Origin: Escherichia coli
Lineage (GTDB): Bacteria > Pseudomonadota > Gammaproteobacteria > Enterobacterales > Enterobacteriaceae
DNA length: 64,000 nt
Direction: 5' to 3' (one strand)
Assembly: GCF_044324875.1 (NCBI RefSeq)
Contig: NZ_CP172185.1
Shown: one piece after another, positions 5,309-38,656 of the stretch
How positions within the stretch are numbered: position 1 is the first letter of the stretch
Layout of the letters: every line of letters starts with the position of its first letter
Position numbers and translations under genes: made by a program
Notes under the pieces: model-generated
Database searches by the model: none
The model's input: only the letters and a program-made list of their open reading frames with translations
Told to the model about the DNA's origin: nothing

Positions 5309-6486
5309 ACATCTTTAATCCGCAGTAAGCAAAACAGAGTGGCGATAATCATCACCATCGCAAACCAGAACACAGCGTGATAATTCCAGATCTCGGCGAC
5401 GATGCCCGCCACTGATCCTGCGATGATCCAGCCCACGCGCGACGTGTTGGTATAGAGCGTGGTGGCTGAACCTGCCTGACCGGGCATCAAATCCTGAAAA
5501 TAGAGCATCCCGATGCCACCCAGAATGCCAATAAAAATAGCATTTAGCAGCTGCAAGCCCAACAGAATGGCAGGTGAATGCGCCATCAGCATTCCTGCGT
5601 AAAAACAGACGCCACCCACGGCAGCAACGCGCATTAAGAAGCGCTTACCCAGACGTTTGGCGAAATATCCGGCAATCAACATGGTCGGGATTTCCAGCCC
5701 GGCGGCGGTCCCCATCATCACACCGGCCAGTTTCTCGGGAAGATGCAGTTCGTTGATAATAAATAGCGGCATGTTGATGATGTACAGGCTGTTCGAGCCC
5801 CACATCAATGTACAAATGACAAACAGCAGCAGCGTATCGCGACGGTTACGGCGCGGCGCTTCAACCGTGCCGGTCGCCAGCGGAAGTTCTTTTTGCATTG
5901 ACGGTAAAAACAGCCACACCATCACGCCGCAAACAATAAACGCTACCGCTGCGCTCAGATACATTACCGTAAAGCTGAAACCCATCGCTAAGGCATAAGC
6001 CAGCGGCGGGCCAATGACCCATGCCAGTGAAACCTGAGCACGTAAAAAAGAGCTGAACATCACCGCTTCACGTCCGGTTTTGTCAGCATGTTCACGGGCA
6101 AGGGCAAACATTTGCGGGTTAGCGGTCGAGCCAAAGCTGCTAAGAAAGACGCCAACGAATAGCAAAACAAAGTAGTTGCGATTCCAGGCAAAAAGGGTGC
6201 AGGCCAGCACGCCTAACAGGCAGCAAAAGACAATCAGCGATTTGCGATCGCCGCGCTTATCAGAGCGCCCGGCGAGAAACTGACTGACCAGAATCCCAAT
6301 GACAGCGCTGCCGGTAAAGAAGAATCCCACCATCGCTGGACGGGCATGTACTTCATCGGTAAGAAAAATGCTGAGTGTCGGGGTTTGCAGAGCGCCCGCA
6401 ATACCGGTGAGAAAGGCAACGATTAAAAACGCCGTCGAGGTCAGATCAAACGATTTCGCGCTGGAGACTGCGGGGGAGTTATGCAT
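5305..6486 (-). CDS. setB: MFS sugar efflux transporter
   Basis: 393 aa, 12-TM MFS-like, [28 protein letters not shown]... Confidence 0.88.
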
Positions 6487-6752
6487 GCTGGTCGATCACT
6501 GGAAGAGGAAGACGCGGAGTTTACGCTGCTTGTCAGAAAATAAACAGACAGCGAAATCAAAAGCGCCACGAATAATCAAAATGCCATTTCACTGTTGCTG
6601 ATTGGCTGCTGACGCTGCTGAAATGAAATTGCTGATAACGGATTTTCCCATCAGCAATTAGGAAAAATGACAAAAAATTGTGCAGCACATCAAACTTTTG
6701 CTCATAACTTTACGGCTTTCCTTGCGTGCTGAAATAGAAGTATTATGCTTTC

Positions 6753-7984: not shown

Positions 7985-8922
7985 TGAGCAGACGTGTTGC
8001 TACTATCACCCTTAATCCGGCTTATGACCTTGTTGGTTTCTGCCCGGAAATTGAACGCGGCGAAGTGAACCTGGTGAAAACCACCGGTCTGCATGCGGCG
8101 GGTAAAGGCATCAACGTGGCCAAAGTATTAAAAGACCTGGGAATTGATGTCACCGTTGGCGGCTTCCTCGGTAAAGACAATCAGGATGGTTTTCAGCAAC
8201 TGTTCAGCGAGCTGGGCATTGCCAACCGTTTCCAGGTTGTACAGGGGCGCACCCGAATTAACGTTAAGCTGACGGAAAAAGACGGCGAAGTGACCGACTT
8301 CAACTTCTCGGGTTTTGAAGTCACTCCCGCCGACTGGGAACGCTTTGTGACTGATTCTCTGAGCTGGCTCGGTCAGTTCGATATGGTCTGTGTCAGCGGA
8401 AGCTTACCGTCAGGCGTCAGCCCGGAAGCGTTCACCGACTGGATGACTCGCCTGCGTAGTCAGTGTCCTTGCATTATCTTTGATAGTAGCCGTGAAGCGT
8501 TAGTAGCAGGTTTGAAAGCGGCACCGTGGCTGGTGAAACCTAACCGCCGCGAGCTGGAAATCTGGGCAGGCCGTAAACTGCCTGAAATGAAAGATGTGAT
8601 TGAAGCTGCGCATGCGCTGCGTGAACAAGGTATCGCGCATGTCGTTATTTCACTGGGTGCCGAAGGCGCGCTTTGGGTTAATGCCTCCGGCGAATGGATC
8701 GCCAAACCACCGTCAGTCGATGTCGTAAGCACCGTTGGCGCAGGGGATTCTATGGTTGGTGGCCTGATTTATGGCTTGCTGATGCGTGAATCCAGTGAAC
8801 ACACACTGCGTCTGGCGACAGCTGTTGCAGCCCTGGCGGTAAGTCAAAGCAATGTGGGTATTACCGATCGTCCGCAGTTGGCCGCAATGATGGCGCGCGT
8901 CGACTTACAACCTTTTAACTGA
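7984..8922 (+). CDS. fruK: 1-phosphofructokinase
   Basis: 312 aa pfkB-family kinase; start overlaps fruB stop (ATAATG). Confidence 0.93.
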   Translation: MSRRVATITLNPAYDLVGFCPEIERGEVNLVKTTGLHAAGKGINVAKVLKDLGIDVTVGGFLGKDNQDGFQQLFSELGIANRFQVVQGRTRINVKLTEKDGEVTDFNFSGFEVTPADWERFVTDSLSWLGQFDMVCVSGSLPSGVSPEAFTDWMTRLRSQCPCIIFDSSREALVAGLKAAPWLVKPNRRELEIWAGRKLPEMKDVIEAAHALREQGIAHVVISLGAEGALWVNASGEWIAKPPSVDVVSTVGAGDSMVGGLIYGLLMRESSEHTLRLATAVAALAVSQSNVGITDRPQLAAMMARVDLQPFN

Positions 8923-33796: not shown

Positions 33797-35032
33797 TTAC
33801 AACGTTACCGGGTGTTCTTTCTCTCCCTTCTTAAACTTCACTTCTCCGAGATCAATACAACCCACCGGGCAGACGTGACCACAAAGCAGGCAACCAACAC
33901 ATTTCTCGGTATTACAATGCGGTGTACGGGTTTTCTCGCTCCATTCCATCGCCTGGTGACCGCCGTCGTAACAGGAAATATAACAGCGTCCACAGCCAAC
34001 ACATTTATCGAGGTTGATGTTGGGATAGACAATATAACTGCGGTCTAAATCTTCCGCCGGAACAATATTGTGATTCGCCAGACCTACCATATCCTGCAAC
34101 GAATCAAATCCCTGATCGGCGAGATAATGCGACAACCCGCTCGCCATATCTTCTACGATGCGATAGCCGTACTGCATAATGCCGGTGGTCACCTGCAACG
34201 TCGCTGCACCGAGCAATAAAAACTCTGCCGCATCTTCCCAGGTTTCGATACCGCCGATACCGCTGATCGGGAAATCGCGCAGCTCTGGATGGGTGCGCAT
34301 TTGCTGAATAAAGCGCAGGGCGATCGGTTTTACCGCTTTACCGGAATATCCGGAAATACTCGATTTACCGTTAACGATCGGCATACCGATTTTCTGATTA
34401 AGATCGATATTGGTGATGGATTTAACGGTGTTAATCGCCGCAATGCCATCTGCGCCGCCGCGCTTCGCCGCCAGCGCCACTTCGCACATATCACCGATAT
34501 TCGGCGTCATCTTCGCCAGCATCGGCAGCGTAGAACCGCGTTTCACTGCCCGACAATATTTTTCGACCAGCTCCGGGCTTTGCCCGACATCGCTACCCAT
34601 CGCATGAGAAGTCATTTGCGGACAGGAGAAGTTACACTCGATCATATCCGCGCCAGCTTCTTGCACCAGGCGCGCCAGCTCCTCCCATTGCTGCTCATTT
34701 TCCCCCATGATCGAAGCGATCAATACTTTGTCCGGGTAATCTTCCTTCAGCCGACGCAGGGCGGCCAGATTCTCTTCCAACGGATGTTCAGCAATCTGCT
34801 CCATATTTTTGAAGCCGATAAAACCGGTATCTTCTTTCACCAGATGATCAAAACGCGGCGAGACTTCGTTGGCGATAAAAAAGCCGATCGTTTTAAACAC
34901 CACGCCGCCCCAACCTGTGTCGTAGGCTTTGGCACACATCTCATAGCAGTTGCCTACAGGCGAAGAAGAGAGGCAGAACGGATTGGGAAACTTCACGCCG
35001 CAAAAAGTAATCGAAAGATCTTTCGTTAACAT
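33797..35032 (-). CDS. preA: NAD-dependent dihydropyrimidine dehydrogenase subunit (DHOD-like, C-terminal 4Fe-4S)
   Basis: Start at [12 protein letters not shown] (411 aa). Confidence 0.88.
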
Positions 35033-36264
35033 GAGCAAGCTCCCTCTAAATAGTGATGAATCGCCTCGGCGGCTTCTTTCCCGGTTTTCACGGCATAGAC
35101 CACGGTTTTGTCACCCTCAACAATATCGCCAGCAGCAAAGACTTGCGGATCGCGGGTCTGGTAATTTTGTGTATTGATGGTGTTACGCTGCGGCTCTAAC
35201 TCCGCAAAGGCATCCAGTCTGGCATGCTGACCGACGGCGAGAATAATTTTATCTGCCGTCATCGTCAGTTCGCCCGGTAACCGTACATGCTTAAACGTGA
35301 CTTTATTGCCTTCCACGGCTACTGGCGTAAATCCATCGATGATCGAAACGCCCAGCTCCCGGGCGCTGGCAAACTCTTTTTCGCTTGCCGGAAACTCATC
35401 TAACTCTTCACGCGCTACGCAAGTTACCGCCTGACAACCGAGAACTTTCAGCGTGCTGGCTACGTCCATCGCGACATCACCGCCGCCGATAATTAATGCG
35501 CTTTGTGGAATGCTGATATCGCCTTGCGCCTGTCGTGCACGTTGCAAGAAGTCGACGGCAATCTCAACGTCGCTATGCTCAAACAGTGGTAGCCCGGAAC
35601 CGCTAGATAACCCCACGGTGACCAGTACCGCGCGGTTTTCCGCTTTCAGCTGCTCCAGGGTGAGTGTTTTACCGATTTCGTTATTGCACTTAATGGTCAC
35701 GCCCATTTTTTCAATACGGGCGATTTCTGCATCCAGTACTGATTGCGGTAACCGGAATTGCGGAATGCCGTTACGCAACCAGCCACCGGGTTGTGCTTCT
35801 TTCTCATAGATCGTGACGTCATAACCCTGGTTTGTCAGCGTCACACTGGCCTGCAATCCGGCAGGACCTGCGCCAATAATGGCGACTTTGCCGAGCGTTT
35901 TAGTACCGGGCTGATAAATTTCCATCCCAGTTTGTTGTTCAAAATCAGTAACAAAACGCTGTAAGCGGCCGATATCAATGGGAGTATCAACACCGGCACG
36001 GGTACAACCGCTTTGGCATAATTTCTCCGTCGGGCACACTCTGGCACAAACGGCACCGAGGGCATTATTTTCACGAATTGTCTCGGCAGCGCCTTTAAAA
36101 TTACGAAAGTAGATTGAGCGAATAAATTTCCCCGGATCGGTCTGTGCCGGGCAAGCCTGACTACAGGGAGCGTCGTGACATAATAAGCAGCGAGAGGCTT
36201 CTTTAATCGCCAGTAACGGTGTAAAAGCCGGAGTGAGTTCATCCAGATAATTTTGTTGCGGCAT
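35026..36264 (-). CDS. preT: Dihydropyrimidine dehydrogenase subunit (FAD/NAD oxidoreductase)
   Basis: 412 aa, GAGPAG dinucleotide-binding motif. Confidence 0.88.
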
Positions 36265-36308
36265 GTGATCTTCCTTAATGCTATGAGTAATTAAGGCGAA
36301 CGCTAAAT

Positions 36309-36511
36309 ATACTCGTCATACTTCAAGTTGCATGTGCTGCGTCTGCGGGTTATTCGGCCCATCCATGGGCCTCACCCCTTATGGGGCCGCTGCAGGCAGC
36401 GTTCAAATCCGCTCCATGCGGATTTGTCGCTCACCCCAGTCACTTACTTATGTAAGCTCCTGGGGACTCACTCACTTGTCGCCTTCCTGCAACTTGAATT
36501 ATTTAGAGTAT
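36309..36511. repeat. ERIC/IRU element, long variant with terminal inverted repeats
   Basis: Ends atactcgtcatacttcaagttgca and tgcaacttgaattatttagagtat are inverted repeats; internal gctcaccccagtcacttacttatgtaagctcctgggga matches the ERIC core. Confidence 0.7.
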
Positions 36512-36660
36512 AAATATTGCGTGCTGATATTAAGGCTATGCGCGTGGGGAAATTTAAACTGTGAAAGGATTCACAAATAGCTGCGGTTCAGAATGTTATA
36601 TCCGCAGCTTATTGAGTGAAGTAATAATTATTCTCAATAATTAACAGAAAAGAGAAAATA

Positions 36661-38656
<1,996 letters not shown>

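Follow-up and report, generated by a model that had tools for sequence, protein, structure and literature searches.

Between preT and yeiS in Escherichia coli, the window analysed here (the whole stretch of 64,000 nucleotides) contains about 200 bp of DNA that the initial annotation had assigned to the ERIC/IRU repeat family, as a variant made longer than the canonical 127 bp by an insertion. This locus raises the question of what the extra length consists of, how it came to lie in an ERIC, and whether the element has any bearing on the genes at its sides.

Identity and outline of the element

The feature at 36308-36512 is an ERIC/IRU element of the long form, an assignment that we hold with high confidence as to both identity and anatomy. 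It is the long form because it carries an extra 78-bp module of four hairpins. The element is a non-coding MITE of the ERIC/IRU family. Its parts and its two neighbouring genes are the following:

35026..36264, minus strand: preT (NAD-dependent dihydropyrimidine dehydrogenase subunit), from the ORF and the RefSeq annotation of matching genomes
36308..36309, unstranded: left copy of the TA target site, from the alignment of empty and filled alleles
36308..36332, unstranded: left terminal inverted repeat, 25 nt, 84% complementary to 36488-36512
36310..36510, minus strand (the strand on which preT and yeiS lie): long form of the ERIC/IRU element; length 201 bp, 205 bp when the two TAs are counted
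36348..36425, plus strand: module ('site 1' insert), present neither in the short allele nor in canonical ERICs; boundaries accurate to 1-2 nt on either side
36428..36471, unstranded: ERIC core with central hairpin (ERIC2 exact, ERIC1R with one mismatch, inverted repeat)
36488..36512, unstranded: right terminal inverted repeat, the last two bases of which are the right TA copy (36511-36512)
36661..36900, minus strand: yeiS (DUF2542 family protein), from the ORF and the RefSeq annotation of matching genomes

The outline of the element was obtained by alignment with alleles that lack it, and consists of a TA (36308-36309), 201 bp of the form TACTC...GAGTA (36310-36510), and a second TA (36511-36512). 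The empty allele reads GCTAAA-TA-AATATT and the filled one GCTAAA-TA-[TACTC...GAGTA]-TA-AATATT. Since the empty site has a single TA and the filled site has one on both sides, the insertion took place at a TA which was duplicated, as has been reported for other ERICs (PMC2229807, PMC3184786). The initial annotation had placed the ends at 36309 and 36511, at most one base from those found here.

The core is identified by the two sequences that are used across the literature as the standard ERIC primers. ERIC2 is found without mismatches at 36428-36449 on the minus strand and ERIC1R with a single mismatch at 36450-36471 on the plus strand, so that on the minus strand the complement of ERIC1R precedes ERIC2; none of 100 shuffled sequences gave chance matches to them. 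The arms of the central hairpin are CCCCAGTCACTTAC and GTAAGCTCCTGGGG, at 36434-36447 and 36452-36465. In alignments with the canonical ERICs at cusC-cusF (of strain BL21) and ybhI-ybhJ, the arms of the element are 95-98% identical, so that a lack of alignment to the ERIC consensus, which would have overturned the initial annotation, did not arise. Similar places number 27,715 in 5,425 genomes (median five per genome), with no annotated feature beneath any of these ERIC-like matches, and the copy in the window is likewise extragenic, between the two coding sequences preT and yeiS. The core, the imperfect terminal inverted repeats, the place between preT and yeiS and the attribution of the excess length to an insertion, all of them anticipated in the initial annotation, were borne out; the insertion is one internal block of 78 bp. 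The element is small, has terminal inverted repeats and a target-site duplication, occurs as filled and empty sites in the population and carries no transposase gene, which is what defines a MITE.

The comparison with the ERIC/IRU (RU-1) family of Enterobacterales reveals no essential difference: the core, the terminal repeats, the TA duplication, the location in spacers between genes of the same strand, the multiple copies and the variation among strains are shared, and the copy in the window exceeds the canonical 127 bp by 78 bp. This family was reportedly described by Sharples and Lloyd in 1990, by Hulton, Higgins and Sharp in 1991, by De Gregorio et al. in 2005 and by Wilson and Sharp in 2006. 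The Correia/NEMIS elements of Neisseria and the RUP and RPE elements are also small, with terminal inverted repeats, a terminal TA, co-transcription with neighbouring genes and a stable RNA hairpin (PMC2229807). They differ in that their sequences are unrelated and that a nested second repeat family is not described for them.

Three alleles of the preT-yeiS spacer

The presence of ERIC copies had been expected to vary among strains. The survey of 5,426 complete E. coli genomes, queried with positions 36000-36900 of the window, confirms this and adds a third allelic state that had not been foreseen. The queried region measures 901, 823 or 698 bp, which corresponds to long, short and empty alleles, respectively:

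Any ERIC at preT-yeiS: 2,199 of 5,426 genomes (40.5%)
Long allele (205 bp): 231 of 5,426 (4.3%), by a junction-specific query
Short allele (127 bp with TAs, 123 bp without): about 1,968 of 5,426 (36%), by difference
Empty allele: about 3,226 of 5,426 (59%), by difference; includes K-12 MG1655, O157:H7 and ST131

The alleles were aligned using one example per length together with K-12 and ST131. Between the short allele and the canonical ERICs at cusC-cusF (BL21) and ybhI-ybhJ, the alignment needs no gaps. The arm substitutions GGGGAC, CTCACTTG and CAACTTGAAT are common to the short and long alleles and absent from those two canonical copies, and the six haplotypes with an ERIC that were aligned do not differ by any SNP within it, while their flanks are mosaic. 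The shared substitutions and the absence of internal SNPs indicate a single insertion event behind both alleles and, therefore, a gain or loss of the 78-bp block in situ. The ERIC thus entered the spacer between yeiS and preT only once, at a TA, in a single E. coli lineage. As a separate observation, the K-12 spacer is only about 92% identical to window positions 36513-36660, as against 99.6% for O157:H7 and ST131; it is a distinct haplotype as well as one without the ERIC.

The effect of the block on the fold of the element can be judged by comparing the two filled alleles. The predicted energies are -53.8 kcal/mol for the short allele and -94.2 kcal/mol for the long one, and the outer stem and the central hairpin are identical in both. 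Given that the outer stem is unchanged with or without the block, the latter sits in an internal loop and leaves the ERIC fold undisturbed. With respect to dinucleotide shuffles, the long allele folds with z = -8.8 on the minus strand and z = -9.7 on the plus strand. The published insertion-bearing ERICs are reportedly the same in these respects, with about 70-80 bp of well folded sequence at a specific internal site and the ERIC hairpin intact.

The alleles also bear on the idea that the element encodes a small protein, for which two ORFs exist on the plus strand (36328-36513, 61 aa, and 36332-36580, 82 aa); the literature already contains comments on ORFs within ERICs (PMC2229807). Yet neither has a Pfam match at E values up to 0.1, both are absent from the empty alleles and broken by the 78-bp difference in the short ones, and both run antisense to the two neighbouring genes. 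A coding function has, in our judgement, next to no chance of being correct.

The four-hairpin module inside and outside ERICs

The initial annotation went no further than an insertion; that the insert is a conserved structured module, which also occurs outside ERICs, was missing from it. The stems of the module in the window are the following:

36356-36362 with 36365-36371: stem A
36375-36378 with 36383-36386: stem B
36388-36392 with 36397-36401: stem C
36404-36412 with 36418-36426: stem D

A covariance model, R1, was built from 48 blocks of all the three site types described below, with four hairpins; it matches window positions 36342-36428 at 91.7 bits and finds 134 copies in 781 kb. In the resulting alignment 89.8% of the cells are paired, compared to 27-40% when the partners are slid by one to three columns, and changes on both sides are seen in 22 of the 27 pairs of the stems. 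Compensatory cells amount to 348 against about 80 in shuffles, with none of 500 shuffles reaching 348; this alignment was fitted to R1 and so favours the structure, although the margin is large and the stem differences are plain in the raw MAFFT alignment. The stems of the module are conserved and covary strongly. Among the stem mismatches, with one loop-closing pair excluded, there are 47 of the G-U type and 59 of the A-C type. This lack of a G-U excess means that complementarity is kept equally on both strands. Such strand-symmetric stems fit a constraint on DNA hairpins or cruciforms, or transcription in both directions, at least as well as they fit a single functional RNA strand.

Within E. 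coli, the module is found in only 648 genomes, usually as one copy each. It occupies the same internal ERIC position at six loci, namely preT-yeiS, argP-rpiA, beside gyrA, yehL-yehK, yajO-dxs and beside pgi, and in two of these ERICs a second block of similar design follows the sequence GGGGAT. At yajO-dxs, a long ERIC with the site-1 module is present at apparently the same spot in Escherichia albertii (locus L015) and in E. coli strain 181.1 (L008); the near-identical left flanks suggest an insertion that may be old or may have been transferred.

Scanning one genome of each species with an exact pattern gave at least 120 stretches. The genera among the matches listed are Yersinia, Serratia, Pectobacterium, Brenneria, Citrobacter, Raoultella, Kosakonia, Edaphovirga, Intestinirhabdus and other Escherichia, and nearly all module copies among these listed matches lie inside ERICs. 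A third module site was found in the right arm of the ERIC. Across Enterobacterales, ERICs thus carry modules at up to three fixed internal-loop sites (counts per site come partly from manual reading and are approximate), each site is marked by a distinct subtype across genera, and all blocks have one orientation relative to the ERIC. A triple-module ERIC of Pectobacterium peruviense (L101, 720-1040, minus strand) is close to three times as long as a canonical one, at about 345 bp. At all three ERIC sites, as well as in copies outside ERICs, the ...TTTG end of the module lies directly before TC. No duplication is evident at the insertion, and at the opposite junction filled sites differ from unfilled ones by 1-2 nt. 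For the module alone, IS200/IS605-type or REP/RAYT-type hairpin elements were considered as a candidate class; such elements have ends defined by hairpins, insert beside a short fixed motif without duplicating it, and have a cognate HUH (Y1) transposase.

Reduced ERIC derivatives were also observed in loci L079, L080, L083 (Citrobacter amalonaticus), L040 (Pectobacterium betavasculorum) and L072 (Brenneria izbisi). In some of them the left arm, the module and the end of the right arm are joined directly, with the whole core missing; others have a deletion from the left arm into hairpin C. These derivatives look like products of recombination or deletion between repeated hairpin units.

The module is not confined to ERICs. 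Seven copies lie inside larger repeated non-coding elements that are not ERICs, in Yersinia (L014, L018, L042, L043, L053) and Serratia (L067, L069); a further Serratia stretch (L113) likewise hosts the module in a non-ERIC repeat. These host elements are several hundred bp long and highly structured, and are flanked by genes for a DUF3053 protein, a PTS transporter and a LysR regulator. The scan of the Yersinia and Serratia host repeats gave no Rfam family at gathering score, and their flanking genes are ordinary.

A more distant relative emerged from the Rfam scan of the window, which gave no family at gathering score over the region and, below it, an end-to-end alignment of the insert with RF02902 (AaHKsRNA22, 'Aggregatibacter sRNA 22') at 28.6 bits and E = 0.008, the gathering threshold of 39.8 bits not being reached by this copy; the copy of strain E2348/69 scores 29.1 bits. 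The weak, partial matches to isrH, Ysr49 and CRISPR-DR36 (E values of 0.1-3) were set aside as overlaps with the ERIC arms or with a hairpin of 12 nt. A tRNA- or tmRNA-like element, considered on account of the GTTCAAATCC motif, was also discarded, as ARAGORN finds no such gene in 36200-36650.

Metagenome contigs searched with the consensus pattern of RF02902 yielded 20 stretches (L136-L155) in which the linkers and the order of hairpins are as in the ERIC insert. The elements there are not in ERICs, and each is followed by ACCGCACTT. The latter is the complement of the Haemophilus-type uptake signal, and we take the contigs to be of Pasteurellaceae type. The four metagenome contigs that were scanned each contain between one and four RF02902 members that are genuine (45-92 bits); in L143 the copies lie on both strands (e.g., 5327-5428, 6497-6597 and 8057-8157). 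R1, which was built from ERIC inserts only, finds 23 full-length elements across the 20 stretches (181 kb), with E values from 3e-7 to 1e-3. The relationship is therefore reciprocal, as RF02902 aligns to the insert and R1 matches the members of RF02902. Both have the same order of four hairpins and share the linkers TTATTC..., TCAC, CCCC/GGGG, GTTCAAA and TTTGTC. The RF02902 members found differ in being free-standing and outside ERICs, in ending in ACCGCACTT, and in their GC content (40-47% versus 61%).

Two further features of these contigs are worth recording. In L138 (11300-11391), and at the same locus in L148, L151 and L152, an RF02902-type copy starts about 25 nt after an ATG; its surroundings read like the in-frame start of a signal-peptide-like ORF (MTLKKTSLKLFTSLHANLFTPIGAVGKANVQKTVFFVTALFAATLL...), and the repeat may be translated there. 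In L153 (4825-5608) and L142 (11776-12305), three or four module copies follow one another in tandem with a period of about 225 bp, each copy adjoining a short Lys/Ala-rich repeat unit.

In view of the name of the Rfam family, the element or its module could be the gene of a trans-acting small RNA. The module resembles RF02902 in architecture, its linkers being conserved and its stems covarying, and this speaks for such a gene, as does the strong predicted folding. On the other hand, the score of 28.6 bits falls short of the gathering score of 39.8, and the scan showed neither promoter nor terminator. At preT-yeiS, 59% of the E. coli genomes lack the element and 96% lack the module, and the stems show no bias towards G-U over A-C. 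Furthermore, the members of RF02902 itself are present in several copies, on both strands, within single contigs, as is typical of a repeat. We consider a small-RNA gene very improbable at this locus, and the data suggest that RF02902 is a dispersed mobile repeat and not a single sRNA gene or regulator. The paper from which RF02902 derives (PMC5909427) says nothing on repeats or copies.

In our reading, the 78-bp module is a separate, older and structurally conserved repeat family nested in the internal loop of the ERIC. A bolder version, to which we grant some plausibility but which is rather unlikely to hold in full, is that of an independent and ancient four-hairpin selfish family of Enterobacterales and Pasteurellaceae-type genomes, surviving in the former almost exclusively as a passenger of the loops inside ERICs and a few other repeats, and in the latter free-standing, fused to the uptake signal and listed as an sRNA (RF02902); the strand-symmetric stems would point to recognition of folded single-stranded DNA, for example by a HUH-type enzyme, and not to an RNA function.

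These relatives also inform the history of the two filled alleles. The long allele could be recent, the module having been transposed into a resident short ERIC or gene-converted from another long ERIC. In line with this, the short allele is about eight times commoner and is found on at least two preT flank haplotypes, and all three long alleles examined have a common haplotype across 35737-35881. Moreover, the free-standing copies and those in the non-ERIC repeats of Yersinia and Serratia imply that the module can exist without an ERIC, and the junction (short CTGCG-T-TCGCTC, long CTGCG-G[...]TCGCTC) involves more than a clean deletion, the long junction matching that of other long ERICs. However, window-type modules (at least 99% identity) are present in exactly 231 genomes, the same count as that of the long alleles, which leaves no visible donor. 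The module differs from other E. coli copies at 2-6 of 83 positions, a divergence similar to that of the ERIC arms from one locus to another, which suggests that it has resided at preT-yeiS for as long as the ERIC. In addition, the subtypes proper to each site across genera argue for old single insertions and not for ongoing hopping. Recent gain deserves consideration, with chances that we put clearly short of even.

In the opposite scenario, the ERIC arrived together with the module and the short allele was derived from it, by gene conversion from a short ERIC or by hairpin-promoted deletion. Palindrome-induced deletion in ERICs was reportedly described by Sharp and Leach in 1996. Donors of the short form are plentiful, given the median of five ERIC-like places per genome; the junction of the short allele is exactly canonical, as conversion would give; a donor of the identical module was nowhere found; and other genera often show deletion derivatives and hybrid modules (L040, L072, L079, L080, L082, L083). 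Against these points, the distribution of flank haplotypes leans to gain, though it is clearly mosaic, and no direct repeat at the module junctions yields the short sequence. A simple slippage deletion from long to short was itself rejected, as no pair of repeats gives the observed junction. We give loss an even chance. The flank SNPs in nine haplotypes are mosaic and do not decide between gain and loss, and the loci retrieved from other Escherichia include no outgroup for the preT-yeiS spacer. On balance, we lean slightly towards loss of the module by conversion.

Neighbouring genes and significance of the polymorphism

The genes sanA, yeiS and preT are all on the minus strand. On this strand the element starts 148 nt after the yeiS stop codon and ends 45 nt before the preT start codon, and a consensus scan of the minus strand of filled and empty spacers detected no sigma-70 promoter or intrinsic terminator. 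With neighbours on the same strand and neither signal detected between them, the element is probably transcribed within the yeiS-preT RNA or the preTA leader. A terminator-like hairpin with a 13-bp stem (CAAATAGCTGCGG / CCGCAGCTTATTG) lies at 36574-36614, about 50 nt downstream of the yeiS stop codon on the minus strand, in all alleles; it was not called by the terminator scan because it has no T run.

As part of the yeiS-preT intergenic RNA or of the 5' leader of preTA, the element would fold as a long branched hairpin of about -94 kcal/mol, 45 nt before the start codon of preT, and this hairpin could change the processing or stability of the preTA mRNA. ERICs have been regarded as co-transcribed MITEs (PMC2229807, PMC3184786, PMC10969869), and RNase E-dependent effects on mRNA are summarised for Yersinia ERICs in passages of two of these articles (PMC2229807, PMC10969869). 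By analogy with such cases, an effect in cis of the element on preTA is conceivable, and we put it forward tentatively. Most likely, the element has no function of its own beyond such side-effects in cis. Further upstream, the sequence of strain CFIAFB20140388 (L131), which has the long allele, diverges completely inside sanA from about its position 1210, beyond window position 36910 or so; sanA appears to be interrupted in this strain, and an IS110-family transposase is annotated nearby.

As annotation, a long ERIC at preT-yeiS is routine. Insertion-bearing ERICs were reportedly described in 1997, by Cromie, Collins and Leach and by Sharp. Presence/absence polymorphism has been known since 2006, when Wilson and Sharp listed 14 ERICs at sites unoccupied in K-12, according to a passage in a 2024 review (PMC10969869). 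With both of these published, the finding as such was already known; the allele frequencies, the quantified covariation, the non-ERIC hosts and the link to RF02902 may or may not be new.

The location of the element gives the polymorphism a wider interest. In E. coli, the anticancer drug 5-fluorouracil is inactivated by the enzyme that the preTA operon encodes (bioRxiv 10.1101/820084); the region upstream of preTA is mentioned neither in that work nor in PMC11185696. The three states found beside preT (59% empty, 36% short and 4% long) constitute a natural experiment on ERICs and preTA expression, and the nested module ties the inserts of ERICs to a family that Rfam records as an 'sRNA'.
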